64,000 bases of DNA from Marinoscillum sp. MHG1-6 (GTDB taxonomy: Bacteria > Bacteroidota > Bacteroidia > Cytophagales > Cyclobacteriaceae), in assembly GCF_024714475.1 (NCBI RefSeq), contig NZ_JAMZMI010000007.1, forward strand, positions 63,498 to 127,497, given 5' to 3'. Under the pieces are notes generated by a model. That model saw only the letters and a list, made by a program, of their open reading frames with translations. It ran no database searches and was not told the origin of the DNA. Shown here one piece after another: positions 4,665-54,389 of the stretch (position 1 is the stretch's first letter; each line of letters opens with the position of its first letter). A program made the translations under genes and the position numbers.

Positions 4665-4749
4665 TAAGTGGTTTAAGTAAATTTAAGACTTAAATAAGTC
4701 AAATCCCATCATCATCTGAGGTTAAAAACACAATGCGTTTCGGAAATGT

Positions 4750-6008: not shown

Positions 6009-6078
6009 CAGCTAAATATTTATACCGGAAAATTACACGGCTTGGTTTACATCCCAAACAAAAAAGTCTTGTCTATTT

Positions 6079-8515: not shown

Positions 8516-8637
8516 GAAAGATTTTACGCTCAGTAATTGCCTAATTCATCTGATCCATTATTTTTGCGTTCCCAAATCGGATATTGAGCGGCAGTTATTG
8601 TTCAATCGCTGATTTGCAAAGATAGCAAAGGCGTTCT

Positions 8638-8828
8638 CGCCTTAATAAAATATTAGAGTAACAGAAGGTTACTAACAACATTGCAGAGACTACAGAGGCG
8701 TGGCAGAGTGGACTAGGCGTCCCCGTCGAATGCGGCGGACCCGCCTTAATAAAATATTAGAGTAACAGAAGGTTACTAACAACATTGCAGAGACTACAGA
8801 GGCGTGGCAGAGTGGTCGAATGCGGCGG
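8638..8828. repeat. Tandem direct duplication, 104-bp period: 74-bp identical copies at 8638-8711 and 8742-8815 covering the tRNA-Ser upstream region plus the first ~17 nt of the tRNA
   Basis: Identical 74-mers read directly. The first copy carries a 13-bp insert (actaggcgtcccc) and then resumes gtcgaatgcggcgg before breaking off. Confidence 0.85.
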
Positions 8829-8882
8829 TCTTGAAAACCGTTGTACCGCGAGGTACCGGGGGTTCGAATCCCTCCGCCTCTG
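8798..8882 (+). tRNA. tRNA-Ser (anticodon TGA)
   Basis: Hand-folded: acceptor AGAGGCG/CGCCTCT, D-arm GCA..TGC, anticodon stem GCGGT/ACCGT with loop CTTGAAA, long variable arm TGTACCGCGAGGTAC, T-arm GGGGG-TTCGAAT-CCCTC. CCA not encoded. Confidence 0.85.
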
Positions 8883-8890
8883 CAAGCAAG

Positions 8891-8918
8891 CCCTGACAAA
8901 TTTTGTCAGGGTTTTTTG
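8891..8918 (+). terminator. Intrinsic terminator after tRNA-Ser
   Basis: ccctgacaaa-ttttgtcaggg hairpin plus TTTTTT. Confidence 0.7.
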
Positions 8919-9486
8919 TTTCTGAACATTTCAAAACGTGTTTTAGGAATGGAAAGAAGCAAAAAAGAGATCAATCCGAAAACCTGTGGACTGTCTAAGA
9001 AACTTAATATTTTAAAAAAGCAGGATAAATTCTGCACTGGGTCATCCAGTGTCAGTGAGGATATCCTATGGATAGTGGGATATCGCTTTTCCACATCTCC
9101 TCCCAAGATTGAATATCCCTTCCATTTGCCTTGATGCAAACGGAAGCCAAAAATCAAGGCTGTGAAGTAATTCCGGAAATTCAAATTCAATAGTGTACCG
9201 TCCTGAAATAGGTTGACTCCAAATTAGTAAATTGATTTCTTATAGTTCTTCCAGTGGTTTTCATTGATAAGTACAACCTTCCAACAACTTTATTGCTTGA
9301 TCCTATTTATATAGGGATTCAAACCCTCGATCCCTCTCAAATACGCTAAAATTCACCCTTTTGAACCAATATGTATTATGAAACACTCATTCAGCATCCT
9401 CTTTTGGCTTTTAACCAACCGGGCAAGTAAAAAAACCGGCGAGGCTCACGGGGTTTTATCTAATTTAAAGTCCCCTTATGTCGGAT

Positions 9487-12400: not shown

Positions 12401-15400
12401 CAATCGCTGATGTTTCCGGTGGACAAATTCACAGAAAAGAGTCTCCCTCTAGGTTCCTGCCCGACGAAAGAGAAACCTCCTCCAACAAACAAGCTATCTG
12501 CTGATCTCAAAATAGATGTGACTACTCCATTCGTAGGGACATCCCAGTCGGTAACTTGTTTTTCAACCAAATCGTATGCGAATAAATTTGATCTGGAAAC
12601 ACCACCAACCGAACTGAATTGCCCACCAACATATATTTCCTCCCCTATTGAGCTGACTGTTAATACTCTTTGATTCATGCATGGATCCCATGGAAGTAAT
12701 GAATAATCCGAAAGCTTTAAGGCAGAAGCATAATTTCTAGATTTGCCACCGAAAACAGTATAATCTCCTCCGGTATATAAAGTATCATTTTTAACAAACA
12801 TGTCTCTGACTATACCGCTTGGTGAAGGATTAAAAGTGGTGATATTATCTGTTGTCAGGTCAATTTCAGCCATGTAGTTTCGCGACATGCTATTTAACTC
12901 CGTGAAAGCCCCACTGATAAAAAGTGAGTTGGCCGAACTTTCCAGCTTAAGAACATAATTGTTCGCATCGAAAACCCAGTCTTCCAGAGTTTTTGATGCA
13001 CGATCAAAGGATGCCATTCGACTTCTACTAAGCCCATCAACTTCCGTGAAATAACCGCCTACAAATATCCGATCAAATGTTGTTTCAATATCCATAATCT
13101 GGCTACTTACCTGTGGTGCCCAACCGGAAATATCCATTGATGGCAGGTTAAAACTGGCCAGATAAGATCGGTTTTCATTGGCAATCGAAGTAAAATTCCC
13201 GCCAATCAAGAGCTCCTCATTTGTAATTTCAAGGTCATTAACAATTTGATTTGGGTTAGGCCGCCATCCTGATAGAACCATGGAATCACCCATATCATAA
13301 GCTATAAGGTTTTGGTAGTAAGTTGCCCCAACTACAGAAAAGGAGCCACCCAACATCAAGTCATCACCTGTTTTATCAATACATAATACCTGACCATTTG
13401 TGGTTGTAATAGCTGATAAAATCGAGCTATTTTTTAGATCAATACTGGCTATTCCCCTTCTCTCTTCACCATCAGCTGTAGTAAAGGTTCCTCCAACAAA
13501 AAGCGTGTCATTAGAAATGTCAAAGGCGTTTATTGTGTTATTGAATGGAATATCCTCCCCAATCAGGTTACCCGACTTTAAGTCAAACATTGCGAATCGA
13601 CTTCTGGGTTGGCCGGACACCTGACTGAATGATCCTCCAATAATTAGACTATCACCTTTAAGCTCCATCGCTTCAACGACAGAATTTACAACCGGATTCC
13701 AGGACAACAGGGTGCCAGACGAGTCATTCACGGCAGCTAGATGCGCGCGTGATGAACCCGCCAGATTTGTAAAATACCCTCCTAAAAAAACGGTGTCAGA
13801 TTTGAGTACAAACGACTCAACACGATCATAGTAAGAATAATAACCAGAAGTAATTTGGGGATCCCATGGAAGGACATTCCCGGTTTGTATATCAAGGGCC
13901 GCGGCTCGATTGTGGCTTATTCCATTAACCAGGCTGAAATAGCCTCCAATGTACAACCGATCATTATTGATGGCCATTGAAAAAACCGTGCTATTTGTTA
14001 TGGGCGACCAGTTGCTGATTTCTCCCTTTGATAGGTCATATTTTGCCAAATTAGACCGTACAAATCCTCCTATTTGCGAAAAATCTCCTCCGGAGAAAAC
14101 AACGGTATCAGAGACTTCCAGGCAATTGACAGTTCCGTTGACCCCAGGATCCCAATCTAAAAGTTGTTTTGTCGATAAGTCAAAGGAAGCGAGACGTGCC
14201 CTGGATTCACCATCAATGTCCAAAAATTCACCTCCCAAATACAGTGTATCATTTTGATATGCCATTGTTTGAATGGCTCCGGAAATTGATGGAGTCCATG
14301 GATCACGGTTTTTTGTGGTAAGATCAAATACTGCCAGACCGCCGCTTGTAGCCCCATCAATATTGGCATAATGACCACCTAGTACCAATTGATCCGGAGT
14401 GGTTATTATCGCATTGACCGAGCCATCGGGGTTCGGAGCAAAAGAAGTAACCGCACCATCCGAGGCCTGCACCTCTGCAAAGTGACTACGTGATTGCCCT
14501 CCCACTTCGGTAAAATCACCGCCTAAATGCACCATGCCATTTTCCAAGTTAATGGCTTTGACCGACGCATTCGGAAGTGGGTTCCAGGAGGTCACTGACA
14601 GTTCATTTAGATCCATTTGAGCCACATATGGTCTCGATTGCCCCTGAAACTGAGTGAAATCACCACCAATATACAAATGACTATCATCTCGATGCAGCGT
14701 TTTTACAACTTGATCTGTACTGAGGTCTATATCTAAAACGGTAGATGTTGTCGTATCTATGGCGATAAGATACTTTTTCTGGCTTCCACCTATTTGGTTA
14801 AATGCTCCCCCTACAAAAATTACAGAGTCATTGGCGCTTACACTGAGTACCTCTCCATTGGCACCGGGACTCCAATCGTTTAAGGTCTCATTCATTAAAT
14901 CATATTCAGCCAATTTTGATCTGCCAATACCATTGATTGAATTGAAGTCTCCTCCTAGATACAGGTAATTATCTTGCAAAGAGAAAGAATTAATCGGACC
15001 ATTAGCATTTATCAAAAGATCACTTAAGTCTCCGGTTTGCCTATTAAAAGCAGCAAAATTTCCACGTGACATTAAATTGACCTGTGTGAATTCACCCCCA
15101 ACAAAAATGGTATCATTACGTGACTGAATGGCATGGATACCACCATCCAACTGAGGGGCCCAATCGGTGAGAGTGCCTGTAGATATATCTATTGAAGCTA
15201 AATTAGACTTTGATGACCCTCCAATGGCTGTGAACTCACCGCCAACATATAAAAGGTTATTATCCAAAAACAACGAATTCACCCGGGTACCGTAGTTACT
15301 TGAGATTTGAGGTAAGCCTCCGACCGTAGCCCCAGAGTTGCGGTTCAATGCTGCAAAATTGCCAACATTTTGCCCATTTACAGTGGTAAATATCCCGCCA

Positions 15401-18400
15401 ATAAAAAGCGTATCTCCTTTGACCTCTAATGCCTGAACAGTATTATTCACAACAGGCTCCCATTTAATAAACCTTCCTGTTGAAGTATCCAGGGCAGCCA
15501 GTTTGTGATAATAAAATACACCTGTCGTATTGAAATTTCCACCTACAAAATATTGGTTTTGTAAGCTTTCAATGGTCAAGACGTTATTTGAAAAAGATGG
15601 ATTCCAATCCAATAATTTGCCATCACGAGCATCAAATGCCCCGGCATTTTTTCGACTTGATCCAGCTAAAAATGAAAAATATCCTCCAACAAAGAGGGTG
15701 TCGTTTTTTATATGCAAATCATACACTGATCCATTTGATCCTTTATCCCAATCGGTCAATGATCCGGTAGACAAATCAAACTGAGCAATTCTTTCTCTGG
15801 ACGAACCGTCTACCACATTAAACTGTCCACCAATAAACAGGCTATTTCCCCATTTTTGCAGACTGTGAACATAGGAATTAACATCGGGAGACCAGTCAAT
15901 CAGGGTAGCAGTAGGTGCATCAATTGCTGCCAGGTTATATCTTGTTTGTCCTTGGAGGCTCGAAAAATATCCACCTACATAAAGTGTATCTCCGGAAAGA
16001 AGCATGCTTCTTACCTGACTTCCATTAAAATTAGCATTCCAATCATTCAATGCTCCTGTTTGACCGTTTATCGACGCTAAACTCCTCCTATATTCCCCTC
16101 CCACATATGAAAAGGACCCACCTATGTAGATATCATTATTTTTATGTTCTATTTCCCAAACCTCACCTTGTGGCATTGGAAACCAGTCATGAAATTCTTC
16201 GTTGACCAAATCATATGAAGCAACAAATTGAGTCCGCTTTCCTCCTATAGCTCTAAAACTTCCACCAACGAATACCAGGTTCCCACTCGCCTGAATAGTA
16301 TTAACCTTATCAGAAGCTCCTGGATTCCAACTTGAAAGCAAACCTGATGAAGGATCAAATCGAGCAAGGCCCTCTCGTTTGCTACCATCAATTTCAGTGA
16401 ATGATCCACCCACCCATATTGGTCCATCGACATCCAGCGTCAACACTGGATGATCAACAATGGGAGCCCAATCAGTGGAGATAGCGGTTCCTAAATCAAT
16501 TTTTGCCAGGTTGGTATGTGTATTGCTTCCTATTTGTGAGAAACTACCTCCGACTACCAGCGTCCCTGCCAGAGTATCCAAGGAATAGATAGTCCCCGAA
16601 ACATTTGGATCCCATGAAGTAACGTTCCCTGAGGCACCATCAATAGCTGCCAGTCGATTCCGTAGATTACCAGCCACCTCCGTAAATGAGCCCCCAATAT
16701 AAACGTTGGATCCATCATAGATAATATCATTAACACGCCCATTTGCTTCCGGAAAATTTTGAACAATTCCTGTTAGGGCATTAACCGCTGTCAAGTTTGA
16801 GACACTATCTACCCCAACTCTTTTGAAATCTCCGCCGATCAAAACATTGCTATTATCCAGCGTAATACTGTAACCGGTGGCATCCATCGCGGGATCCCAA
16901 TCCGAAATGATATTGGAAGTGACATCTATGGAGAAGGCATTACTTCTAGTCTTTAAATTAATTCTATTGGAATAAGCACTAAATATACTCACCGAGGATC
17001 CATCAACATACATACGATTAGCTGAACTTAGTCCGGGATTCCAATCAGTTGCTAACTGAGTTGTTCGATCAATGACGGCCACGATATTTCGACTGCTGCC
17101 TGCAACATATCCGAACCCTCCGCGGACATAAAGAAGGTTTCCACTGGCATATAATTCGCTTACTGCGCCATTAACTCCGGGATTAAAATCATTCAGATTG
17201 CCCGTATTGGCATCGAATGCGGCTATATACTTTCTTTCCTGCCCATCAATAAAACTGAAGTGTCCCCCCGCAAATAAGGTATCCCCGGAAATCGTAAGGT
17301 CATTTACGGAAGAATTTGGATTTGGTGCCCAGTCCAGGACTGAATTGTCCGACAAACGAAGTCCCCCCAATCTGTATCGATATTGACCCGCTAAACTTGA
17401 AAATTGGCCACCAATATACAAGGTATCACCTTTAAAGGCCATGGTAAAAACGTATTGATTCAAGGCCATATTCCATGATTCATCCAACTGCCCATCAGAA
17501 AGGTTAAACCTGGACAGATAAGGTATGGATTGGCCGGCAATAGCACTATATGAGCCCGCAACGTAGAGGTATCCATTATTAATCACAAATTCATTCACCG
17601 ATCCGCTAATGGATGGATTCCAACTCAATAATTGACCGGTATTTGCATCTAATGCCAAAAGGCCAGTTTTGGATACTCCATTTACCTTATTGAAGGATCC
17701 GGCCACAAAAACAGTATCCCCACTGACTATAAGATCAGTAATTTGTCCATCTGTATCAAAGACCCAATTTTGTTGAGGAGTACCGTTCGCAGAAATTTTT
17801 ATAATGTCATTGGAATTTGAGCTCCCGCTGATGAGAATATCTCGTCCTCCTAAAAACCAAGAACCGTCCGGCCCTTTAACAGCGTCTTGTATGTATCCTG
17901 AGGTAATTGAGCCAAATAGATTGGTTAAAGAGCCATTGTTATAATTAATTGCAGGCCCCACCGCCGCCGATTCGCTATCCTGAATGTACCTAAAGGAACC
18001 GGTGACATAAAGCGTATTGCCGGAAAGTGCCAAATCATATACTGTACCATCGATAGTCGTTGAACGAAAAAAACCGGTCTGATTTCCCTGGGCATCAATA
18101 TGTGCTAACCTAGCTGAGCCATATGAGGAGGAATAAAAACTGCCTCCTATATACCATCCTCCATTGCCATCAGGTATGGTTGCATTGATGTCACCATTGA
18201 TTTTAAACGGTGACTGAATTGGAATACCTGTATCCGGATCAATTAATGCCCCATTACTGTCAGGAAATGTCAAGGAATCTCCGGAAAAATTGAAATTACC
18301 TCCTATCAATAGACTGTCTCCTTTCAAGGCTAGGGTATACACTCCACCGCCTAGTGGCGTGTTATCAAATAGTTCGCTTACCTCTCCATTGGAGTTGATA

Positions 18401-20681
18401 TGCGCTAGACCATCTCTTGAAACACCTCCTACATTGCTGAACTGCCCACCGATGAAAATCCCCCCATTGCCATCCTCAATGGCATCCCAAACCGAGCCAT
18501 TAACCTTTGGAAATGATTTATCAATTAGACCGATCCCATCAATCTTTGTTCCATAAGTCCCTGACAAACCATTCTGATTATCTGTATAGGTAAAAGAGCC
18601 TCCTATGTAAAGCAGACTATCCTGAAGTGCCAGCGACTCAACAGACCCATTAAGTGATTCCCCATCTAAAAACTGCTTCACGTTACCATAAGCATCGATA
18701 CGTGCCACTTTGTATGTGGTGGCAGAACCAATTCGAGAGAAATCCCCGGCCAAGTACCACCCTCCTTTTCCATCATCGATAACCTCCCTTACCGTGCCAC
18801 TTACTCGTGGAAAGGCTAAGTCCGGAAGTCCATTCTTATCTATTTTGGCTCCATTTGAACTTGTTAGAGCTCCTTGTGTATCGTTAATATTGAATGCTCC
18901 CCCGACATACAACGTTGATCCATCAAGCGCCAGGGCATTTACATCATTATTTAAATATTGACCCTCAAAAAAATCAGTTACTCGTCCCTCGCTATCGATA
19001 TGTGCAAGTTTATTTCGATACTGGTTACCAACATAACCGAATCTCCCCCCCATAAACCAGCCACCATTGCCATCAGAAATCACCGCATTAACCGAATTAT
19101 TGCTCTTAGGATATGTTGGCATTGATAATCCAGAGCGAGTTGAAATTATTCCCGATCGAGTGTTTGTAGTTGCATTAGTTGCATCAGCAATGTTAAAACT
19201 GCCTCCAATATACAAGTCTTGATCCTGCAAAATCAGGCTATTCACCTGACCTGAAAAATTCACATCACTCATGAAATCAGTCACATTACCCTCCGCATCA
19301 ACATGTGCAATACCACGTTGGTTAGTATTTCCCACCTTATTGAAACTTCCTCCCAGATACCATCCTCCATTTTTGTCTGAAACTATTGAATTTACATTAC
19401 CACTCACTTTTGGGAAACCTTTATCCACTTCAAATGAATCATTCAACCGTACAACACGAGAATCTCGGTAGGTCCCAAGAGTATCTTGAAAATTGAAGTT
19501 CCCGGCGATCACCAACGTATCATTATACAATTGGATATCGTTTACACTTCCATATCCAAGATTGAAATCATTAAGCATTGCTGTAACCTTACCGGTTGAA
19601 TCTACATGAGCAACATCAACTACGGGAACTGCATTAACATATGAAAAATCACCTCCAAGGATTTGGCCTCCCTTATTATCATCAATAATTTTATTAACTG
19701 TTCCATAGACAATTGGAGTTTCAGGTAGTAAAAGCCCATGATTATCCCACCCAGCAACCCCTCTTCGATCGTACTTCTCTTCACCTACATTTTTAAAACT
19801 ACCTCCCACATATAGCATATCGCCAACAACCTCCAAACTATTAATTGCCCCATCAATATTAAGTCCTACTACCTCATTTTTTATTTCTCCAAATTCATCT
19901 AGATAAACAATTTTATTAATCGATGAATCACTTACTGAAGTGAATGAACCTCCAACATATAAACCGCCCTTCTCATCCTTTTTCGACACTTGTACGGTTG
20001 AGTTAAACATCGGAGTCTCAGGGAGATATTCTCCCTTTAAAGGATCCAAAAAAGCGCCTCTTGTATTTTCTAAAGGATTTACTGATGAAAAGGAACCTCC
20101 CAAGTATAAAATACTATCTCCATTCATCTGCATTGAAGTTACACTCCCTATTATTTTTGTATCGGCAGCCCAGTCTGTCACCATTCCATTTTCATCAATG
20201 TGACCAATGCCACTTCTCGTGGAGTCCCCCAGGATCGAAAACCCTCCGGCCAGATAATATCCGCCATAGCCATCCGGGGAAGCAGCGTTGACAGCATAAT
20301 TCGGATAAGGATATATCAGAGGAACCTGACCCTCCTCTTTGCTGACAGGGACTCCATATTGACCAAATCTCCCGGCCTTTGCAAAACTTCCTCCAAGGTA
20401 TAGCAGGTGATTGACGGAGTCATGAACCATTGAGAACACTGGTCCTGATACAGAAGGAAGATGCTTTTCCAACACCTGAGCAGTATTTTCATCAACCTCT
20501 CCATTGCAGTTGTTATCTACTCCATCCAATATTTCGGGAGCACCTGGAAAAATCGCAGCACTTGAATCATTACAATCCAATGCAGCATCTACACCATCGC
20601 GATCGAAATCCTGAGATCTGACGGTGTAAATTGATAAGATCAAACTCAATAGAAATAGCGGTAGAATATGAGGTTTCATGG
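9487..20681 (-). CDS. Giant (~3730 aa) T9SS-secreted repeat protein: signal peptide, MopE-like Cys/Asp motif, dozens of delta-60-like beta-propeller repeats, Ig-like domains, Por/T9SS C-terminal sorting domain
   Basis: Single uninterrupted ORF. Start placed at MKPHILPLFLL (signal peptide). Repeat unit LYVGGxFtxvxGxxRxxLAxxDxxTGxLxxWNPxxNGxVxxLxxxGDt repeats throughout. C-terminus contains IYPNPV...GIFMLVI...KLIK, typical of the T9SS C-terminal domain. Confidence 0.9.
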
Positions 20682-20743
20682 TAAGATAAGTTAAGCGGTA
20701 GAATATTATCAGCATAATAAAGGTATGGCTTAATCAATGTTAG

Positions 20744-41023: not shown

Positions 41024-41270
41024 TTCGATACCTACCCGAACACAGTGGCTGGATCGTTCAGCTCGATGGATATTGGAGCTTTCGCTGTCGCAGATTAAGC
41101 GCGATTTTGACTCCTTTTTCATATTGTCAACCGTTCGTCAGGCGGTTACAATTCGTTAACATCTCAGAGAAATGGCTTTTCCCATTCATCTATTTTGTCC
41201 TCACTCCATTAAATTGAGAATTGATTTCCCGCTCCTAAAACATTAGTCCACTCTCTTTTAAGTAAGAAAA

Positions 41271-42782
41271 GTGCATTTACACCCCACCAACCCCAATCCA
41301 GCATCCAACTACCAGAAGTATCTCTGGTGCCGAAACCTCATTGAGATTGGGTTACGTCTTTTCATGATTACGATTTTCATTGTCATCACCCAGACTTGTT
41401 TTGGTCAGGTAACCATTGTGGTTGAGTCAATTCCAAATGCAACACCACCTTCAGATACTATTTTCCTAACCGGGAATTTTAACAACTGGAGAACAAATGA
41501 CCCCGAGTATATACTACGAAAGCAACTGGATGGGAAACTAGCCTTTCGCTTCGATAAACCTGCGTACACAGAAATAGAATATAAGTTTACCAGAGGCAGT
41601 TGGGTGAAAGTTGAGTCAAGCCCATCCAATCAATACATGCCTAACCGAAAACTAGTCGTGACCGAGGAGTCACCGGTAGTGTATACAACTATTGACAACT
41701 GGCAGGATTTAGGTGGAGCTCAACCTATAAGCCTGATTGCATTTTATTATTCATCCGTAGCGTTTCTTGCTTCCATTCTGCTGTTTTTAATCTACAGAAC
41801 CAATAAAAAAGATCCGGTGCGCATGAAGGTCTTTACCATTTTTAACGGCTTCATGGTGACCGTTTTCAGTGCCGCCGTCGTCCTCCAGGTGGCAAACGCC
41901 ATTTGGATTAACCATGTGGAAATGATCCTTCAGGTTACTCTGTTTTTGTGGGGGCCATTGGTTTACTCATTTCTTCTGGGATTCAGAAAAAATCCATTTA
42001 AGGTCAAAATGAGCTGGTTAATTCTGCCTGCTTTTGGCATGATCGTGTTGACGGTAATGGAAATTAAGAACTTGGAGCTGGTCAATTTTATGAATTCGCA
42101 CTGGAGAGGCCTTAACCATGGCTACGTCGGAATTTGCTCTGCGGCGGCCATCAACACGGCTATTTGCTTATGGCTTTCGTATAAAACCATTTTCGATATC
42201 AATCCTAATCGAAAAGTCACAAATCAATTCACCAAATGGTTCTTTAACCTAAACCTACTTGTAGCAATCCTCCTTTTTGGAGGTTTTTGTGGATTTGCAT
42301 TTCAAATCCCTGAACTAATGATGGAAGACTATGATCCGATCTTTGTAATACTATCGGCTCTTGTCATTGTGGAAATGTACTATTTGTGGCGGTTCCCTGA
42401 AATCCTGAGTGAAGCCCCTGCACCATCAGCGCCGATAGCCCTCGAGCTAAAGGAAGAGCTTGAAAAGCTAATGATTGAAGAGCAGGCATTCAAAAATCCG
42501 GAATTAAGCAAAGCTGAATTATCTCAACTCCTCGACACCAAGCCGCACGTACTTTCCAAAATGATCAATGACTATTACGGTAAGAATTTCAGAGACTATA
42601 TCAATAGCTACAGAATCATGGCGTTCATCAAACTCGCTGAGGAGGGGCAGTTAGAAAGATTCACATTTCTTGCTCTGGCCCATGAGGTTGGCTTCAATTC
42701 AAAATCCACCTTTAACCTGGCCTTTAAGAAATACACTAACGAAAGTCCGCGCGATTACTTCAAGGAAAGAATCAGGAAATGA
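41271..42782 (+). CDS. Membrane-bound one-component regulator: signal/anchor, periplasmic CBM48/AMPK-beta-like glycogen/starch-binding domain, 7 TM helices, cytoplasmic AraC-type HTH
   Basis: LTGNFNNW...EIEYKFTRGSWVKVE resembles the AMPK-beta glycogen-binding module (LSGSFNNW...EHQYKFFVDGQW). Seven hydrophobic helices counted by hand. C-terminal AraC signature (HEVGFNSKSTFNLAFKKYTNESPRDY). Confidence 0.8.
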   Translation: MHLHPTNPNPASNYQKYLWCRNLIEIGLRLFMITIFIVITQTCFGQVTIVVESIPNATPPSDTIFLTGNFNNWRTNDPEYILRKQLDGKLAFRFDKPAYTEIEYKFTRGSWVKVESSPSNQYMPNRKLVVTEESPVVYTTIDNWQDLGGAQPISLIAFYYSSVAFLASILLFLIYRTNKKDPVRMKVFTIFNGFMVTVFSAAVVLQVANAIWINHVEMILQVTLFLWGPLVYSFLLGFRKNPFKVKMSWLILPAFGMIVLTVMEIKNLELVNFMNSHWRGLNHGYVGICSAAAINTAICLWLSYKTIFDINPNRKVTNQFTKWFFNLNLLVAILLFGGFCGFAFQIPELMMEDYDPIFVILSALVIVEMYYLWRFPEILSEAPAPSAPIALELKEELEKLMIEEQAFKNPELSKAELSQLLDTKPHVLSKMINDYYGKNFRDYINSYRIMAFIKLAEEGQLERFTFLALAHEVGFNSKSTFNLAFKKYTNESPRDYFKERIRK

Positions 42783-42826
42783 CCATTTTTCTTTTCCAAC
42801 AAGAGTCCTTTTCAGCGACTTTAATT

Positions 42827-42881
42827 CGTCCTATATTAAAAAATAGGACGTTTTTTCACACCCCGTTTAGGACTTTCGAGT
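42827..42881 (+). promoter_or_regulatory. Upstream element of amylase 1: CGTCCTA-N10-TAGGACG inverted repeat, then a second TAGGAC 24 bp downstream (TAGGACgtttttt...TAGGACtttcga)
   Basis: Read directly. The same architecture recurs upstream of the paralog. Confidence 0.4.
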
Positions 42882-42917
42882 CTGCGTTTCATATCCAATT
42901 CAATTAAACTAAAGCTA

Positions 42918-45272
42918 ATGACAAGAGCATATTATTTCAGCTTGCTTGTCATGACCCAGGTCCTGGCCACCCAATATTGCATGGCTCAGGATGATGTCAT
43001 GATGCAGGCATTTTACTGGGATGTACCAGTAGATGATCAGAACAAAAACGGTACCTGGTGGGATAACCTTAGTGGCAAAGCAGCTGCCCTGGATAGTGCA
43101 GGGATCACCGGCATCTGGGTGCCCTCTCCTGCTAAAGGTAATTTCGGAATATGGGACATGGGATACGGCATTTTTGACCACTATGATCTGGGTAATTATG
43201 ATCAAAAAGGCACCGTGGAGACCAGGTTTGGATCTCGCGCTGAGCTCGAATCAATGTTATCCACCATGCACGATAAGGGCATCGATGTTTATGCTGACAT
43301 TGTACTGAATCATATGTATACCGGAGACAGTGAAGATGAATCGAATCCGGCGGTGAAACAATACGTTTTTGACGAGGCTTATCGCAATGCTCAACAATAC
43401 TCCCCTTACCCAACCAATGAGATTATTTGGGTGGTAAAAAATGCCACAGCAGGTGACTATTATATTCAAATTGCGGGATACCATCTGGGTAGCACCAATA
43501 AAGAAGATCGCGCTTATGACGTTGAAATAGATTACACCGGATCAGGATTCAACGGCTCCTATTCATCAGAATCAGAACCTAATAATGGGAATGGGGATCA
43601 TAATACTTTTCCAGCATCGGGAAATACCATTCGCGGCTTCATAGAAGTGGGAGACATTGATGAATACAAGGTCTCCGTATCGTCAACCACCGATATTAAA
43701 ATAAAACTAACGGCCAGAAAAGAAATTGCCGATCCCTACGAGTGGGCATGGGCTGATCAAACTAACGGGTATTATCCCATGGCCATTTGGCATGAAGGAT
43801 CAAACATTGCCATAACAGCACAGTTGGAGGCCCACACAAACACTGGTGTTAACTACGTAACTCACACCGGCACCGGAGAGCCAAATTACTCCTGGACCTA
43901 CAACGACTTTCACCCTGTTGATGACAATGACTACCTGGGATACATCGGCACGGATGAAATCGTAACTAACACCAAGTTTTTCGGTAATGACATCAATACC
44001 TTTAGCTCAACCGTAGCTACAAGATTTCAGGACTGGGGCGTATGGCTTACTAATGAAATCGGTTTTGATGGATATCGACTTGATTTTGTGAGGGGTATCC
44101 AGTCGCAATATGTAGCAGATTGGGTGAAAAATCTTCCATTGGAAAATGATGTGCAGCGATTCATTGTGGGAGAATACTGGGGCCCGGATTATAGGATAAA
44201 AGAGTGGGTTAACAATGTTGCAGGTGGAGGAGCCAATGTAAATGGGTTTGACTTTCCGCTCAAGTGGTCACTCAATGATTTGTGCAATGGCGATGGAAGC
44301 AGTTATGACATGAGATGGCTTAACCATGCTGGTATGGTCCGAAATGATCAAGGTAACAGTCTTCCCGGATCTTCAGTTGTAACTTGGTTGGAAAACCATG
44401 ACACAGGTAAAGAGCATGACAAATGGGTGACCAAAGACTGGAAGTTAGGGTACGCTTATATCCTTACTCACGAAGGAAGACCATGCGTATTCTACAACCA
44501 TTTTTTTGGGGATCAAATGATGGACAGTCATGATAATTATTATAAAATATATCCAGCCATTAGTTTACGTGATGATATTGAGAAGCTCATCTTTGCAAGA
44601 AAAACATATCTCGGTGGCTCCCTAACAGTTTTGAGTGAGATTGGAAACCCCTACCCTGCTGAGGATGCATATAATGTATATGTAGCCAGAAGAGATGGTA
44701 ATGGATTGGAAGGAGAAGCGCTCAAAAGTGGGGCGATCATCGTAATCAGCAACCATGACAGCGAGACCAAAGGCCTTTGGGTAGATAGCTCACCTGAGGG
44801 ATGGGGAGATTGGAGTAACACAAAATTGATTAATGCATTTGATATGACAGATACCACCGAGGTTATGTCAGATGGCCGCGTATGGATCGAAGCACCGGCC
44901 AGAGGATATGCGGTCTATGTTAAGGAAAGTGAATTTGTAAACTACGCCATGGACAGCTCAAAGGTCCAGTTAGGGAATATTGATGAGCAGGAAAATTCAA
45001 TATTAAACCTTGACGAATCTGCTATGGCAAGGCTATACCCCAACCCTCTGGGTCATGGAAGTTTAATACTAAACCTAAAGACCCCTACATCCCGCCTACT
45101 CAATATTAAAATCTATGATGTTCAGGGTAAACTTCGCTTTTCTGAATCATATACGATTGAAGCAGGAAATCAGGATGTAAGTCTGAATGTGGAAGAATTA
45201 TCACCGGGATATTATATCACGAAAGTCGAGCATGGCACCCAACAAGAAACTCTTCCGCTACTAATTAGATAA
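42918..45272 (+). CDS. Secreted GH13 alpha-amylase with enlarged domain B (PPC-like insert) and T9SS C-terminal sorting domain
   Basis: Signal peptide. GH13 regions (QAFYWD, DIVLNH, GFDGYRLDFVRG, EYWG, WLENHD). About 245 aa between beta3 and beta4, including EPNNGNGDHNTFPASGNTIRGFIEVGDIDEYKV (pre-peptidase C-terminal-like). C-terminal LYPNPL...YYITKV tail. Confidence 0.9.
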   Translation: MTRAYYFSLLVMTQVLATQYCMAQDDVMMQAFYWDVPVDDQNKNGTWWDNLSGKAAALDSAGITGIWVPSPAKGNFGIWDMGYGIFDHYDLGNYDQKGTVETRFGSRAELESMLSTMHDKGIDVYADIVLNHMYTGDSEDESNPAVKQYVFDEAYRNAQQYSPYPTNEIIWVVKNATAGDYYIQIAGYHLGSTNKEDRAYDVEIDYTGSGFNGSYSSESEPNNGNGDHNTFPASGNTIRGFIEVGDIDEYKVSVSSTTDIKIKLTARKEIADPYEWAWADQTNGYYPMAIWHEGSNIAITAQLEAHTNTGVNYVTHTGTGEPNYSWTYNDFHPVDDNDYLGYIGTDEIVTNTKFFGNDINTFSSTVATRFQDWGVWLTNEIGFDGYRLDFVRGIQSQYVADWVKNLPLENDVQRFIVGEYWGPDYRIKEWVNNVAGGGANVNGFDFPLKWSLNDLCNGDGSSYDMRWLNHAGMVRNDQGNSLPGSSVVTWLENHDTGKEHDKWVTKDWKLGYAYILTHEGRPCVFYNHFFGDQMMDSHDNYYKIYPAISLRDDIEKLIFARKTYLGGSLTVLSEIGNPYPAEDAYNVYVARRDGNGLEGEALKSGAIIVISNHDSETKGLWVDSSPEGWGDWSNTKLINAFDMTDTTEVMSDGRVWIEAPARGYAVYVKESEFVNYAMDSSKVQLGNIDEQENSILNLDESAMARLYPNPLGHGSLILNLKTPTSRLLNIKIYDVQGKLRFSESYTIEAGNQDVSLNVEELSPGYYITKVEHGTQQETLPLLIR

Positions 45273-45296
45273 AACACTTTTTAAGCCAGCAGTTAT

Positions 45297-45331
45297 CCCC
45301 TGTCTTATTATTTAAGGCAGGGGATTTTTTG
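45297..45331 (+). terminator. Intrinsic terminator between the amylase paralogs
   Basis: cccctg...cagggg hairpin plus TTTTTT. Confidence 0.65.
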
Positions 45332-45446
45332 TACCATTTGATCATCTCGTAAAATTGATCACCGTTTTACCCTCCTCATAAATAAAAATATAGGCCTCTT
45401 GAATTGAATATTCATCAATAACACACTCAATAAACGCGTGTAGTTT

Positions 45447-45498
45447 GTCTGATTTTTAAAATTAGGACGTTTTTTAGAGTGGCTTGTAAGAGTTTCGA
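45447..45498 (+). promoter_or_regulatory. Upstream element of amylase 2: GTCTGA-N10-TAGGACgtttttt-N11-TAAGAGtttcga, same spacing as upstream of amylase 1
   Basis: Read directly. Half-site spacing of 24 nt is identical to the paralog. Confidence 0.4.
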
Positions 45499-45549
45499 TG
45501 TCGCCTTTTGAAGGCAAACAGAAACAACGTAACTCTAAACACAAGCAAA

Positions 45550-47901
45550 ATGAAAAAACATCTATCTGTCTTAGTGCTTGCTCTAATCTTATTCAGTGCT
45601 ATCCAAAAGGGATACGCACAGGATGATGTCATGATGCAGGCGTTCTATTGGGATGTACCCGTGGATGATCAAAACCTCAACGGCACCTGGTGGGACAATC
45701 TCAACAGCAAAGCAACCACACTTGACGATGCCGGGATCACCGGAATCTGGATCCCTTCTCCCGCTAAAGGCAACTTTGGAATCTGGGACATGGGCTATGG
45801 AATATTTGACCACTACGATCTGGGTAATTACAATCAAAAGGGAACGACTGAAACACGATTTGGCTCTAGAGCCGAGTTAGAAGCTATGATGACAGCAATG
45901 CATAACAATGGCATTGATGTCTATGCTGACATTGTGCTCAATCATATTTACACAGGAAGCAGCGAAGATGAATCCAACCCTGCTGTGAAACAATATGTCT
46001 TTGATGAGGCCTTTAGAAACGGACAGCAATTCTCACCTTACCCAACTAATGAAATCATCTGGGAAATTAACAATGCGACCCCAGGTGACTACTATATTCA
46101 GATAGCCGGATATCACCTTGCTAGCACCACCAAAACCGAACGTGGCTACGATCTTGAAATTGATTACAGCGACTCCGGATTTAATGGCAACTATTCCTGG
46201 GAAGCCGAACCCAACAATGGAAGTGGCAATTTCAATGTATTTCCTGCTTCTGGAAATACCGTCAGAGGACACATTGAAGTTGGAGACATTGACGAATATA
46301 AGGTGACCGTCACTTCGACCACAAATGTGAAAATCAAATTAACCGCAAGAAGGGAAAACACTAACCCATGGGAGTGGGCCTGGGCTGACCAGACTAACGG
46401 TTATTATCCTAAAGCCATTTGGTTTAACGGAACCAACATAGCACTTACCACACAACTTGAAGCACACACGAACACGGGGGTCAACTACGTAACTCATACG
46501 GGTATCGGAGAACCAAACTATACCTGGGATTACACACATTTTCACCCGGCTGACGATAATGACTGGCTAGGTTATGCAGGAACGGATGAAATAATCACCA
46601 ACACCAAATTCTTTGGAAATGACCTAAACACTTTTAATACTACAGTAACCGACAGGTATAAGGACTGGGGTGAATGGCTCACCAATGAAATTGGCTTTGA
46701 TGGTTATCGACTAGATTTTGTAAGAGGTTTTCAAGAACAGTATGTCGCTGATTGGGTAGGCAACCTCCCACTAAAGAAAGGTAAACAAAGGTTCATTGTT
46801 GGAGAGTACTGGGGTCCTGACTACCGAATTAAGGAATGGGTTAACAATGTGGCCGGTTACGGAGCAGATGTAGACGGATTCGATTTCCCTTTAAAGTTTT
46901 CATTGACTTCGATGTGTAATGGTGATGGCTCCTTTGACATGAGGTCACTCAACCACGCAGGAATGGTTAGAAATGATCAGGGCAACGGCCTACCGGGCAC
47001 GTCAGTGGTTACCTGGCTGGAAAATCACGACACTGGTAAAGAACATGACAAGTGGGTAACCAAAGACTGGAAAATGGGATACGCCTATCTCCTGACTCAT
47101 GAAGGAAAGCCTTGTGTTTTTTACAACCATTTCTTCGGCGATATAATGATCGATAGCCATAACAGTTCATATACCGTGACACCGGATCCGGACCTTGACG
47201 AGGACATCAAAAAGCTAATTTTCGCCAGAAACACTTATCTCGGGGGTACGCTATCTGTTCTTAGCGAGGTAGGAAACCCCTATCCTTCAGCCGACGCTTA
47301 TAACGTCTATGTTGCAAGAAGGGACGAAAATGGATTAAATGGAATTAAGGCTAAAAGTGGTGCCATTGTGGTGATCAACAATCACGACAGCCAAACCAAA
47401 GGGCTTTGGGTAGATAGCTCACCTGCTGGTTGGGATGACTGGAGTAGCACCATTCTGGTCAATGCATTTGACAATACTGATACTGCTCAGGTATACGCAG
47501 ATGGTCGGGTTTGGGTAGAAGCTCCTGCAAGGGGTTATGCTGTTTATGTGAAAGCAAACGAATATGTAGAATATAGCAGCGGAAGTGGTGCTCGTTTAGG
47601 CTCCCCCGTCGATCTCTCACAAAGTAGCAATGCAGAAATCTCTGCATTTGGGATCTCTAATCTTTACCCTAATCCAGTCTCTGAAGGTCAGTTCACCATG
47701 AACCTTGAACTACCAGGGGCCAATGTTGTCAATGTGAAAATCTTTGATATTCAGGGAAAACTTCATTTTTCTGAATCGAGGGAAATGAGCGCCGGGCGTC
47801 AGGAAATCAAATTAAACATTGAAGACATGACGGCAGGATACTACATCACAAAAGTTCAATTCGAAGGCGTGACTAAAACATTACCTCTTCTGGTGAGGTA
47901 A
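45550..47901 (+). CDS. Secreted GH13 alpha-amylase, tandem paralog of the upstream gene (same PPC-like insert and T9SS C-terminal domain)
   Basis: Start set at MKKHLSVLVLAL (signal peptide). Roughly three-quarters identical to the upstream paralog by eye. LYPNPV...YYITKV C-terminal domain. Confidence 0.9.
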   Translation: MKKHLSVLVLALILFSAIQKGYAQDDVMMQAFYWDVPVDDQNLNGTWWDNLNSKATTLDDAGITGIWIPSPAKGNFGIWDMGYGIFDHYDLGNYNQKGTTETRFGSRAELEAMMTAMHNNGIDVYADIVLNHIYTGSSEDESNPAVKQYVFDEAFRNGQQFSPYPTNEIIWEINNATPGDYYIQIAGYHLASTTKTERGYDLEIDYSDSGFNGNYSWEAEPNNGSGNFNVFPASGNTVRGHIEVGDIDEYKVTVTSTTNVKIKLTARRENTNPWEWAWADQTNGYYPKAIWFNGTNIALTTQLEAHTNTGVNYVTHTGIGEPNYTWDYTHFHPADDNDWLGYAGTDEIITNTKFFGNDLNTFNTTVTDRYKDWGEWLTNEIGFDGYRLDFVRGFQEQYVADWVGNLPLKKGKQRFIVGEYWGPDYRIKEWVNNVAGYGADVDGFDFPLKFSLTSMCNGDGSFDMRSLNHAGMVRNDQGNGLPGTSVVTWLENHDTGKEHDKWVTKDWKMGYAYLLTHEGKPCVFYNHFFGDIMIDSHNSSYTVTPDPDLDEDIKKLIFARNTYLGGTLSVLSEVGNPYPSADAYNVYVARRDENGLNGIKAKSGAIVVINNHDSQTKGLWVDSSPAGWDDWSSTILVNAFDNTDTAQVYADGRVWVEAPARGYAVYVKANEYVEYSSGSGARLGSPVDLSQSSNAEISAFGISNLYPNPVSEGQFTMNLELPGANVVNVKIFDIQGKLHFSESREMSAGRQEIKLNIEDMTAGYYITKVQFEGVTKTLPLLVR

Positions 47902-47937
47902 AAGCTCGGTTCAACCAGCAAAATGATCCCCCACCTT

Positions 47938-47967
47938 TTCGTGGGGGATTTTTTTTGTTCTCGACAT
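47938..47967 (+). terminator. Intrinsic terminator after amylase 2
   Basis: cccccacc-ttttc-gtggggg hairpin plus T8. Confidence 0.7.
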
Positions 47968-50906: not shown

Positions 50907-53900
50907 TTAATCTTCCTTTAATATACTGACGGGTCCCAATAATCCTGACCTGATTAAAGGACGACCTTCCAACAAATAAGGTGCTCTGGGTGTAAAAGTT
51001 ACCCGCTCCTCCTCAGGTAATTCCTGATCACCTATGAGTCGATTTTGCCAGGTATTGGTCACTTCAACAATCAAGTCATTTATACCCGCTTTTAGAGCAT
51101 CAGTGATTTCCACTTGATATGGCGGAGTCCATGCGATGGCGCATTGCACTCCATTTACTTTAACCTCTGCGATATTGCCTACTTCCCCGAGATTCAGCCA
51201 GTACCTCGCATCCCCTTTCTTCTTATCAAATTCGAAGGTTGTTTGATAAGTAGCCGTCCCCGAAAAATACCTGATATCAAAAATCTCATGCTCGGTCCAA
51301 CTGATCAAACGATCAAAGTCAAAAACTCCTTTTGGCCCAAAATCAGCAGTATCAAATTGCACCTGCCAGCTTTCCTGAAGTTGCATGACCTCGGTAAAAT
51401 CCTTCCAGTTTTTTCCTTTAGACCGGGTTGGTTCTCCTGCCTTACTGAAAATCAGGAATAGCGACCCGTTTGGCTCTAACCTCAGCGGTAGCTCAATCCG
51501 ACCTTCAATCACTTTCCAATCCCGAGCTTCAATGAGCTCATCCACCACAGGATCATAGATTTCAGGTTGATATCCCTCCAAATTCACCGAAGCGTAAATT
51601 TCCCTAACCTCTTCTGTTTGATTAGAAAGAAAGTACAGATCAAAGCCCTTATCCTTTCGGTGAGTCCATGAGATTTCCTCAACCTGCTTCCCGTTTTGAT
51701 CCATCGCCACAAAGTCCCGATTTATACCAATAGGCTCAAGACTGGCAATATCAAATTTTCCTGTAAGCACCTTACCCTGCCCCAGGGCCTTCATTTTTAA
51801 GGAACCTCCCAATTGGCTGAATTTCCCACCAAAAATCTGGTTCATGACCGCATCGAGTTCCTTATCTGAACCTTTCAAGCCTAAAGTTTGGTCCATCTCC
51901 CCCTGAAAATAAACCGTTGCCCCTTCCTCTATGAGTTTCAATAATTTACTCGCCACGGCCACACTCATTCGTTGGCCCTCAGGATTCATCAAAGTATTTT
52001 GTGGAATCACCAGTATCCCGTAGCCTGAACCTTCCGCAAAAACCACTCTACCCTTTTCTATATGAGCCAAAGTCATTAACGCATGCGGATTAAATGAATC
52101 ATACTGATAACCATTCAGCGGATCAACCCAGGGAAAATTTACCGCCATATTGGCTGTGAGCGTTACATTAGCTGGCTGCTTCATCGTGGGTGTCCCTTCA
52201 TTCCTTAGCCGAGTGCTTTCTCTTTCCCTCAGTTCCTGATCATAAAGTCCGGGTAAGATCCTTACCAAACGATCTGGCAACATAGAGCGCCTTGGAAGCT
52301 CTTCTCCGATAAAAACCGCAATATCACGGACCGGGATGCCATTTTGCAGCAAAGCCTGGCATCTGGTCGCATAGTCCACCATTGCTCTCCCTGGTTTCCA
52401 CCATGTCTGATCTCTTTGAAAATAAAGCCCTACTCCATTCAAAGTCATTCCCGGCTTCCGATCCATCCAGGGATTATGCGCAAAGACATGATAGACAAAC
52501 CTGTTGATCCCCAGGGTATACTGATAATCTCCCAGCGCCTTCAGGCTAGCCGGATGCTCATCCCAATCCATTCTTAACTGGGTAAATGCTTCAGCAGGAA
52601 TAATCTTTTTCCCATAGATATGCCCGCCTGAAATGGCATCCAGCATGTCATTTGGTTTATCGTGTGTAGGACTTCTAAGCCAAAATTCCCCTATCGGTAA
52701 ATCCACCTCTGCAAAATGTCTTACCCCATCACTGAGCATGGTTGGCGAAACATTTTCAGCGCTAAACTGAACCCCATTGTTATGAGCCAATTCAGACAAT
52801 GTTTGGTAGAAGTTCTCAATATACAGCTCCGAAATGGTTTCCCTAAAATCATACAAAAAACGTTCAGAAACCTCGGGAGACTCCAATGGAATTCCAGCTA
52901 AAACGGGTAGGTATGGAGTGATTTCATAACCCCGTCTGGTCAGAAATTCCTCAGCAAAGGTGCTGCTCCAGTTTTGGCTGCCGCACTCCCAGCTATCCAC
53001 ATGAAACCTAGTGATTACCTCTCTGGCTAATTCCGAACCTGCCTTTTGCTGTATGGCCCCAAACCAATTTTTGAATTGAAGCGCCACCGCTTCTTTACTG
53101 AATTTATCACATTCCAGTCCTAGACCTCCTCCCCCGGTATAGTTCGTATGACCGGTAGAAGTATGCCCCATTCTGAGCACTGTCCAACTCCCATCAGGAA
53201 CGTTCCAGTTCAAAACACCATTTTCATCCAGGGAATCTGTAAGTAGAATAACCTGGTTTTGACTGGTGCACAGAGATTTTGGTATTTGGCTCTCACTAGT
53301 TCGGTCACTGATCCTCCACACCAATCCGGACTTACCTTCAATTTGGTGGATTTTAGGGCTATTCATTAATTCAATATTCTGAACAACCAATTTGGCTTTC
53401 CATTTACCTGCATCCAGGTCTTCTGATCCCGGTTCGGTACCTTCAGGATTATAAGCAAATCGAAAATACCTGGCAGTGGTAGGAGGTACAGAAAACGTAG
53501 AGCCTTCATCCCAGTTTTGCCACCCCTGCCTTGCGGGTTTCATTTGTGCGACTGTATCAAATTGTTCACCGTCCTGACTGGCAAGCATGGTCAGCCTTTG
53601 CCATTGAAGGTTGGAAGAGGGCCCGGTGGGACGTACTGATCGACAGGTAAATGGATCATCAAATTCGAATTGGATCCATACAGGATCATCAGATTTAAAC
53701 TTCTCTTCCGTTTGATCTATTCCAAGAAAAGCTACATTCTCAGCATTTTCACTTATTACAGAAGGGTTTAGGTTAAAAGAAGATACCGGTTCACCACCCA
53801 AATTCGGAATAGCTATAATAGCTATGTCCCGATAGTAACCTTCGATTGTTGGAGGTTGAGGAAGCGTATCATTGAACTGCTTCCCGCCATTCACAACAGT

Positions 53901-54389
53901 TTCGGACCAAACCAACTTTTGCATGGACTGTTCAGGTTTAATCCAGGGACCACCAGCTACCGCAAACCCATCTGAGGCATGAATGCCTAATTCAAGCCCT
54001 AAACGACCTGCCTCCTTTATGGCATGCTCCACCATCCCCCACCATTCAGGACTTAGCTGAAGGGCTGTGGGCTCATACACCGGTGGGTCCAGTTCTCCAA
54101 GTATAGGCATCATGTAAGCCCCGGCCAGACCAGCTTCTTTCATAGCTTCCAAATCCGCGGTAATACCCTCTTTAGAGACACTGGCATACATCCAGTACCA
54201 GAAGACCCATGGCTGATCATCATTCGTATCAAAATGGACTTTCCCCACTTCAGTTGTCGCTGGGGAATCGCACCGGAAAGTGAATAAAATAAGAAATGCA
54301 ACAAACAGATTACTAAGGCTGAAGTTACTTGGGTTCAAATGTCGTTCGTCTTTTGAATGAGTGTCAAAGTTACAATTGCCTGGGTACAA
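50907..54389 (-). CDS. Large secreted glycoside hydrolase (N-terminal WVFWYWM family; GH106/GH2-sugar-binding-like)
   Basis: Signal anchor, then the conserved PWVFWYWM motif seen in large Bacteroidota glycosidases. Family assignment uncertain. Confidence 0.65.
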   Translation of the reverse strand: MYPGNCNFDTHSKDERHLNPSNFSLSNLFVAFLILFTFRCDSPATTEVGKVHFDTNDDQPWVFWYWMYASVSKEGITADLEAMKEAGLAGAYMMPILGELDPPVYEPTALQLSPEWWGMVEHAIKEAGRLGLELGIHASDGFAVAGGPWIKPEQSMQKLVWSETVVNGGKQFNDTLPQPPTIEGYYRDIAIIAIPNLGGEPVSSFNLNPSVISENAENVAFLGIDQTEEKFKSDDPVWIQFEFDDPFTCRSVRPTGPSSNLQWQRLTMLASQDGEQFDTVAQMKPARQGWQNWDEGSTFSVPPTTARYFRFAYNPEGTEPGSEDLDAGKWKAKLVVQNIELMNSPKIHQIEGKSGLVWRISDRTSESQIPKSLCTSQNQVILLTDSLDENGVLNWNVPDGSWTVLRMGHTSTGHTNYTGGGGLGLECDKFSKEAVALQFKNWFGAIQQKAGSELAREVITRFHVDSWECGSQNWSSTFAEEFLTRRGYEITPYLPVLAGIPLESPEVSERFLYDFRETISELYIENFYQTLSELAHNNGVQFSAENVSPTMLSDGVRHFAEVDLPIGEFWLRSPTHDKPNDMLDAISGGHIYGKKIIPAEAFTQLRMDWDEHPASLKALGDYQYTLGINRFVYHVFAHNPWMDRKPGMTLNGVGLYFQRDQTWWKPGRAMVDYATRCQALLQNGIPVRDIAVFIGEELPRRSMLPDRLVRILPGLYDQELRERESTRLRNEGTPTMKQPANVTLTANMAVNFPWVDPLNGYQYDSFNPHALMTLAHIEKGRVVFAEGSGYGILVIPQNTLMNPEGQRMSVAVASKLLKLIEEGATVYFQGEMDQTLGLKGSDKELDAVMNQIFGGKFSQLGGSLKMKALGQGKVLTGKFDIASLEPIGINRDFVAMDQNGKQVEEISWTHRKDKGFDLYFLSNQTEEVREIYASVNLEGYQPEIYDPVVDELIEARDWKVIEGRIELPLRLEPNGSLFLIFSKAGEPTRSKGKNWKDFTEVMQLQESWQVQFDTADFGPKGVFDFDRLISWTEHEIFDIRYFSGTATYQTTFEFDKKKGDARYWLNLGEVGNIAEVKVNGVQCAIAWTPPYQVEITDALKAGINDLIVEVTNTWQNRLIGDQELPEEERVTFTPRAPYLLEGRPLIRSGLLGPVSILKED

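Follow-up and report, generated by a model that had tools for sequence, protein, structure and literature searches.

A gene in the genome of Marinoscillum sp. MHG1-6 (Cytophagales) encodes a protein that joins a starch-binding domain (SBD), a seven-transmembrane (7TM) helix bundle and an AraC-type DNA-binding domain, and it is followed directly by two genes for secreted α-amylases, amy1 and amy2. The 64-kb stretch of DNA that was analysed, hereafter the window, holds a conserved palindromic site in front of each amylase gene (Table 1). Because of its architecture and its adjacency to an amylase gene in 32 of 32 genomes, the regulator probably represents an undescribed type of starch sensor-regulator in Bacteroidota. 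We consider it about 60% probable that the protein is an inner-membrane one-component sensor of malto-oligosaccharides which directly activates amylase transcription.

The database label of the regulator is no more than 'helix-turn-helix domain-containing protein'. An earlier reading of the window from its letters, the original prediction, had assigned to positions 41271-42782 a signal or anchor segment, an ectodomain with glycogen-binding motifs, seven transmembrane helices and an AraC helix-turn-helix, and all of these parts were found there. At least 178 full-length homologues of about 480 amino acids (aa) each share 35-51% identity with the regulator. The start codon is ambiguous, since two gene calls for the identical protein differ, the one in Table 1 starting at 41271 and the other (P0001, 472 aa) at ATG 41364. 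As the 472-aa version lacks a positively charged n-region, the true start may lie upstream of it. Of 116 homologues, at least 90% retain a Gln at the presumed cleavage point (Q15 in the 472-aa numbering), and AxA-type sites precede it, which suggests a signal peptide cut between AxA and Gln. The regulators of two loci (L006 and L010) appeared truncated; this was an artefact of ATG-first gene calling, and P0029 from the same species comprises 475 aa.

LTGNFNNW (aa 66-73) and EIEYKFTRGSWVKVE (aa 101-115) occur as motifs in the ectodomain, which is predicted to adopt the β-sandwich fold of a starch-binding domain of about 100 aa. The profile AMPK1_CBM was matched by 40 of 41 ectodomains at E<=1 (best value 8.5e-9), and CBM53, X25 and CBM48 were matched by some. 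In an hhalign comparison, the ectodomain family aligned with the carbohydrate-binding module (CBM) of AMPK β1 at a probability of 95.8% (E 7.6e-9), with FNNW paired to W100, YKF to K126 and GSW to W133; a search of the PDB with the ectodomain profile retrieved AMPK CBM chains at E 1e-3. The putative ligand contacts of the regulator are thus W73, K105 and W111 (numbering of the open reading frame, ORF), equivalent to W100, K126 and W133 of AMPK β1 and to site 1 of CBM20. They are almost invariant among the homologues (Trp 116/116, Lys 116/116 and Trp 115/116). In AMPK, glycogen binding is abolished by the exchanges W100G and K126Q (PMC6274970). We infer that the ectodomain of the regulator binds α-1,4-glucan oligosaccharides. 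The domain had been described beforehand as AMPK-β/CBM48-like; the starch-binding CBM fold was borne out and homologues match profiles of this group, but the predicted fold is nearer to CBM20 than to CBM48, and because the Pfam scores of the window ectodomain itself remain below threshold, its assignment draws on the profile of the family and on the fold predicted for the domain. The placement of the domain outside the cytoplasm agrees with the topology predicted from the positive-inside rule over 116 homologues and from the cleavage sites. Given this periplasmic location, the sensor would meet imported oligosaccharides and not starch granules.

The seven transmembrane (TM) helices were found by hydropathy and also in the AlphaFold2 (AF2) model, in which the bundle is predicted to have a fold like that of G-protein-coupled receptors (GPCRs), including their connectivity. 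No Pfam family matched the bundle, and neither detectable sequence homology to eukaryotic GPCRs nor G-protein coupling was found for the regulator. When the 7TM region was compared by phmmer with 1.84 billion representatives, 18 proteins matched at E<=1e-3, all of them SBD-7TM-AraC proteins or fragments thereof except for one marginal protein of 360 aa, so that the 7TM domain appears to constitute a small, distinct family. The exception (P0132, from a metagenome; E 9.5e-4) is a 7TM-AraC protein whose sequence begins directly with TM1, without any ectodomain. It may point to a broader 7TM-AraC chassis; a word-index search with its TM region returned P0132 itself as the sole match. A linker of only about 30 residues separates TM7 of the regulator from the AraC domain, which exceeded the Pfam cutoffs for PF12833 (HTH_18; 45.2 bits, cutoff 33.6) and PF00165 (27.4 bits, cutoff 26.6) and comprises the C-terminal double helix-turn-helix of about 100 aa that characterizes AraC/XylS factors.

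A scan of 185,579 species genomes for the ectodomain identified 445 that encode it, and the 80 best loci were analysed as neighbourhoods of 20 kb. In 32 of these, an SBD-7TM-AraC gene is present with enough DNA downstream of it, and without exception the following gene on its strand encodes an orthologue of the window amylases with a tail for the type IX secretion system (T9SS); these orthologues measure 770-797 aa, are 48-76% identical to the amylase of the window and begin 82-290 bp downstream of the regulator. The paired loci span the orders Cytophagales, Marinilabiliales and Bacteroidales, with representatives in Reichenbachiella, Fulvivirga, Cyclobacteriaceae, Chryseotalea, Ohtaekwangia, Pseudochryseolinea, Chryseosolibacter, Alkaliflexus, Natronoflexus, Marinilabilia, Draconibacterium and metagenome-assembled genomes of Bacteroidales, and the genes around the pair vary from locus to locus. 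The genomic link between regulator and amylase anticipated by the original prediction is thereby substantiated well beyond what the window alone could show, also by the palindrome at a fixed distance from the promoter. An apparent SusC/D pair upstream of the Reichenbachiella regulators was discarded, as the 936-aa gene at this position encodes DNA polymerase I.

Two longer SBD-7TM-AraC variants (625-636 aa, about 28% identical over the full length) were found at other α-glucan genes. One (L054:1026-2936) precedes genes for SusC, SusD and SusE/F (3351-9435), the other (L075:6201-8078) a plant-type amylase of glycoside hydrolase family 13 (GH13; LLQGFNWES...) in the downstream DNA from about 8190 on. 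These neighbourhoods provide independent support for the α-glucan link. The module had been set apart from the Sus paradigm beforehand; this holds for the window, which contains no SusC/D genes, but not for the variant that precedes SusC/D/E-F genes. Both variants carry an extra N-terminal region of about 130 aa.

The remaining 45 loci (L036-L080 apart from L054 and L075) encode proteins of about 460 aa that match in the ectodomain only and belong to another family. None of them has an amylase homologue as immediate downstream neighbour. Proteins of this SBD subtype occur in Flavobacterium, Hymenobacter and Saprospiraceae (e.g. L048:9947-11317, L064:9941-11359 and L043:9914-11329). Four were scanned with Pfam, of which all matched PF00756 ('putative esterase') and three a T9SS tail; beyond these four, the family was assigned by the length of about 460 aa and the ectodomain-only match. 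The SBD of this esterase family displays FNNW, EYKFTRGSW and NWxDLGG, and its Trp/Lys/Trp site is kept in 40-41 of 41 sequences. An esterase targeted to α-glucan is an odd combination.

An element of about 34 bp with the consensus GTCCnATTTTnnAAAATnGGnCGnTTTT is common to all 34 amylase-upstream regions. Its core, present upstream of every amylase, is a conserved imperfect palindrome of about 24 bp, GTCCTA-N10-12-TAGGACG. When both strands of the window were scanned with a matrix trained on other genomes only, the two candidate operators were the best sites (36.4 and 33.9 bits), against 16.6 bits for the best unrelated site and a background of -31 +/- 10 bits. With leave-one-locus-out training, 25 of the 32 intergenic sites ranked first within their 20-kb loci. 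The T-run that directly follows the right arm falls at the position of the -33 element. Promoters of Bacteroidota have a well-established -33/-7 consensus with the -7 element TAnnTTTG, and in 29 of 34 promoters a box A-N1-2-TT[TG][CG] that resembles this -7 element starts 21-23 nt after the palindromic element. The position relative to -33 is the usual place of an activator. In 17 of the 34 regions, a second half-site of the GTCCTA type lies 41-43 bp, or four helical turns, further upstream; it is absent from the window. The original prediction had noted a TAGGAC repeat shared by both amylase genes: the element is real, exceeds chance expectation by far and supplies the top two sites of the window, but the first TAGGAC forms the palindrome's right arm, while the second (42868-42873) sits in the -7 box and occurs in amy1 only. 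The intergenic region of L054 contains GTTCCA-N10-TGGAAC, a palindrome of the same design and different sequence. The strict co-occurrence of protein and palindrome suggests that the SBD-7TM-AraC protein binds this site.

Upstream of the regulator gene (41180-41265) are weak operator-like half-sites, TTGTCCTCAC and GCTCCTAAAACATTAGTCCAC, which scored below 15 bits in the matrix scan and could indicate autoregulation. The only other site of the window above 15 bits (13415-13448) was rejected as a third operator, as its 16.6 bits are far below the scores of the amylase sites and it lies inside an ORF of 3742 aa (9487-20715, minus strand); it probably arose by chance.

From these observations we infer, as follows, which ligand is bound, that the regulator binds DNA, in which direction it regulates and how it signals. 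A Sec signal peptide would direct the CBM20/48-type domain to the periplasm. Secreted amylases would free α-1,4-glucan oligosaccharides from starch, which would be taken up across the outer membrane and bind the starch-binding domain at its canonical Trp/Lys/Trp site. Occupancy may then be relayed by the GPCR-like seven-helix bundle to the AraC domain tethered at the cytoplasmic face; this domain would engage the palindrome at the -33 element, recruit RNA polymerase and increase transcription of the amylase gene. Basal amylase activity would thus yield oligosaccharides that induce more amylase, a positive feedback. In Marinoscillum, the amylase gene was duplicated together with operator and promoter, and both copies would therefore stay under the control of the sensor.

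Several points weigh against this proposal. The window ectodomain scored below every Pfam CBM threshold, with 15.1 bits for CBM_20 (cutoff 23.3) and 14.9 bits for CBM53 (cutoff 27.6). The GPCR-like arrangement in the AF2 model could reflect a bias of the training set, and the 7TM bundle itself could bind a ligand. As the sensor cannot touch granules, the model requires oligosaccharides to pass the outer membrane, and the module contains neither SusC/D nor porin genes. The palindrome is assigned to the regulator through co-occurrence, and a palindrome of two arms of about 11 bp is unusual for AraC-type domains; the reported motifs of SusR and of hybrid two-component systems (HTCS) are direct repeats with long spacers (PMC3878776). 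Furthermore, operator 1, which follows the regulator gene, can also be folded into a hairpin that looks like a weak terminator (-10.7 kcal/mol).

The same architecture and targets would also suit a repressor that, while sitting at the palindrome, keeps the amylase promoter blocked and is released by the binding of an oligosaccharide. The site touches the -33 element, where a bound protein could occlude RNA polymerase, and palindromic operators are common among repressors. AraC/XylS proteins, however, are mostly activators, as are SusR and the HTCS, and the site ends upstream of the -33 element instead of covering the -7 box or the start site. The in-phase second site 42 bp upstream in half of the promoters (17/34) likewise fits an array of activators better, and repression is unlikely.

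Alternatively, the amylases may be regulated in response to something other than free oligosaccharides. The bundle might sense another cue, from the membrane or a small molecule, or the SBD, bound to a protein partner or to a glucan in the periplasm, might do no more than modulate or localize the receptor. The conserved 7TM bundle resembles that of GPCRs, which bind their ligands inside it, the marginal relative P0132 has no ectodomain at all, and the homologous AMPK module also has allosteric and protein-contact roles. The near-invariance of the Trp/Lys/Trp carbohydrate contacts is nevertheless hard to explain unless sugar binding has been selected, and the SBD is linked to three kinds of α-glucan genes. 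We therefore regard this explanation as distinctly unlikely.

The palindrome could instead act in RNA, as a terminator or attenuator hairpin between regulator and amylase, with no protein operator involved. The hairpin of the amy1 copy (z -4.4) was found by the terminator scan, is followed by a T-run and lies just 3' of the stop codon of the regulator. Conservation as an RNA hairpin was rejected: pairing shows no covariation (71.3% of cells paired versus 73.0% in column shuffles, with 436 of 500 shuffles at least equal), and most copies remain unfolded, those of amy2, L001 and L002 folding no better than shuffled sequence (amy2 z -0.02). Across the loci, the left arm drifts and the right arm TAGGACG is constant. 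The amy2 copy is located beyond a separate strong terminator, and the spacing between site and promoter box is fixed, which leaves a role in RNA very improbable. That adjacency merely reflects co-inheritance or a shared biology of secretion or the envelope, with the AraC domain controlling genes elsewhere, is least credible, for although the evidence covers neighbourhoods of 20 kb, strand and order are kept in 32 of 32 genomes from three orders amid differing neighbours, a motif specific to amylase promoters travels along, and the variant regulators adjoin other α-glucan genes.

An activating malto-oligosaccharide sensor of this kind would resemble several known regulators in part. SusR of Bacteroides thetaiotaomicron likewise resides in the inner membrane, with its sensor in the periplasm and its DNA-binding domain in the cytoplasm. 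To our knowledge, SusR lacks both a CBM20/48 sensor and a seven-helix bundle. By its published description, SusR is set apart by an output that is not of the AraC type, and it controls a SusC/D-based locus, whereas the Marinoscillum regulator is proposed to control a stand-alone amylase secreted by the T9SS. SusR senses periplasmic maltose or malto-oligosaccharides and activates adjacent starch genes without a phosphorelay; its DNA-binding domain reportedly has no significant similarity to those of other transcription factors (PMC3878776). Both SusR and HTCS are precedents in this phylum for membrane proteins that sense glycans in the periplasm and bind DNA in the cytoplasm, the DNA-binding domains of HTCS being of the AraC type (PMC3878776). 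The HTCS of Bacteroides share with the regulator a single inner-membrane polypeptide, a periplasmic oligosaccharide sensor, a C-terminal AraC-type helix-turn-helix and neighbouring glycan-degrading targets. They differ in the relay through histidine kinase, phosphoacceptor and receiver, in their β-propeller or periplasmic-binding-protein sensors and in not having seven TM helices; Pfam gave no match to HisKA, HATPase_c or Response_reg in the regulator. By analogy, the regulator may work like SusR, with which its predicted logic and biological role agree, or like an HTCS minus the phosphorelay.

The resemblance to 7TMR-DISM receptors (RetS, LadS, NicD and RgsP) is one of layout only: a sensor outside the cytoplasm is joined through seven TM helices to a module on the cytoplasmic side. 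Their N-terminal extracytoplasmic domain is predicted to bind carbohydrates and is fused to a cytoplasmic signalling module (PMC6107284). In Pfam scans, the domain 7TMR-DISM_7TM (PF07695) was matched neither by the regulator (E<=1) nor by eight relatives (E<=0.01), and it was absent from the precomputed Pfam lists of the 120 homologues listed; 7TMR-DISMED1 and 7TMR-DISMED2 likewise did not occur in these lists and had no match in the regulator or eight homologues, whose ectodomain is of the CBM20/48 type instead. Known outputs of 7TMR-DISM receptors are kinases, GGDEF/EAL domains and phosphatases, as opposed to the DNA-binding domain found here. Membership in the 7TMR-DISM, HTCS or SusR families was consequently rejected, because the defining domains of each, for SusR as described in the literature, are absent. 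CBM20 and CBM48 modules, such as the SBDs of glucoamylase and CGTase and those of STBD1, laforin and AMPK β, are known as appendages of enzymes or, in AMPK, of a kinase scaffold, with targeting or allosteric functions. We know of none that serves as extracytoplasmic input of a transmembrane transcription factor. ToxR, CadC and BcrR are membrane-tethered one-component regulators whose DNA-binding domain stays attached to the membrane and which use no phosphorelay. They differ from the regulator by one or four TM helices, an N-terminal DNA-binding domain of the OmpR or XRE type and the lack of a CBM sensor.

Polysaccharide sensing in Bacteroidota is usually described in terms of three regulators, namely SusR-like proteins, HTCS and sigma/anti-sigma pairs of the extracytoplasmic function (ECF) type (PMC3878776). 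The literature that was searched contained no description of the SBD-7TM-AraC architecture and no characterized sensor with such domains, as the original prediction had supposed. Tentatively, and at somewhat less than even odds, the protein may represent a fourth, undescribed class of glycan sensors in this phylum, in which a receptor with a GPCR-type seven-helix fold would convert the binding of polysaccharide by an extracytoplasmic CBM directly into promoter binding by a fused AraC domain without phosphorelay, second messenger or proteolysis. It would then amount to a natural 'GPCR-to-DNA' one-component system for which both the ligand class and the operator are defined, and to a minimal fourth design of regulator in Bacteroidota in which an enzyme-type starch-binding module feeds a transmembrane transcription factor. 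The protein would, moreover, be among very few bacterial seven-helix receptors with predictable ligand, DNA target and one-gene output, so that GPCR-like signalling could be tested directly in a simple reporter. Consisting of one regulator, one operator of about 34 bp and one promoter, the system would serve in marine and soil Bacteroidota as a compact switch inducible by starch or maltodextrin and would account for the control of T9SS-secreted amylases outside Sus-type loci.

Table 1 Features of the regulator-amylase module in the window (positions refer to the 64-kb stretch; domain limits, topology, operators and promoter boxes are predictions)
Feature	Position	Strand	Description
Regulator gene (SBD-7TM-AraC)	41271..42782	+	503 aa from GTG start; RefSeq WP_258105420.1
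Predicted signal peptide	41364..41405	+	Putative cleavage before conserved Gln, ORF aa 46
Starch-binding domain, CBM20/CBM48 type	41406..41729	+	ORF aa 46-153; predicted periplasmic
Seven-helix transmembrane bundle	41733..42392	+	ORF aa 155-374; N-terminus out, C-terminus in
AraC/XylS-type helix-turn-helix DNA-binding domain	42525..42764	+	ORF aa 419-498; cytoplasmic
Candidate operator 1	42825..42858	+	CGTCCTA (42827-42833), TAGGACG (42844-42850), then T-run (-33-like); 36.4 bits
-7-like box of amy1	42868..42878	+	TAGGACTTTCG; TTTCG starts 24 nt after operator CG
amy1, secreted GH13 α-amylase	42918..45272	+	WP_258105421.1; GH13_5/BLA-like core, ~200-aa insert, T9SS C-terminal sorting domain
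Strong intrinsic terminator of amy1	45295..45331	+	-23.7 kcal/mol, z -6.9
Candidate operator 2	45444..45477	+	Degenerate left arm TGTCTGA, right arm TAGGACG (45463-45469), T-run; 33.9 bits
-7-like box of amy2	45487..45497	+	TAAGAGTTTCG; 24-nt spacing to operator, as in amy1
amy2, paralogous secreted GH13 amylase	45550..47901	+	WP_258105422.1; T9SS tail; mechanical ORF from TTG 45508
Intrinsic terminator of amy2	47925..47956	+	Terminator scan

The two proteins encoded next to the regulator, expected to be paralogous GH13 amylases with T9SS tails, proved to be just that. They are 72% identical, matched the α-amylase models PF00128 and NCBIfam PRK09441 (1e-92) and scored above cutoff for Por_Secre_tail/TIGR04183; their RefSeq labels are 'alpha-amylase family glycosyl hydrolase' and 'T9SS type A sorting domain-containing protein'. 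The conserved GH13 regions DIVLNH, GYRLDFVRG, GEYW and ENHD are readable, and the nearest structures in the PDB are GH13 enzymes of the BLA type (6gxv, E 3e-48). Each amylase gene forms its own transcription unit, as a strong intrinsic terminator follows each of them.

The GH13 catalytic domain is interrupted by an insert of about 200 aa (43371-43976, aa ~152-353 of amy1, and the same part of amy2), which, judged by length, is also carried by all 32 amylase orthologues. No Pfam family matched the insert; its motif EPNNG...G.I..GDIDEYKV presumably recalls pre-peptidase C-terminal (PPC) domains.

The genes that flank the module in the window are unrelated to starch and encode a cyclic nucleoside monophosphate (cNMP)-binding regulator, a methyltransferase, a MacB/FtsX permease, TfoX and a rhamnosidase of glycoside hydrolase family 106 (GH106). 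The last, an α-L-rhamnosidase-like protein of 1160 aa (50907-54389, minus strand), lies near the module.

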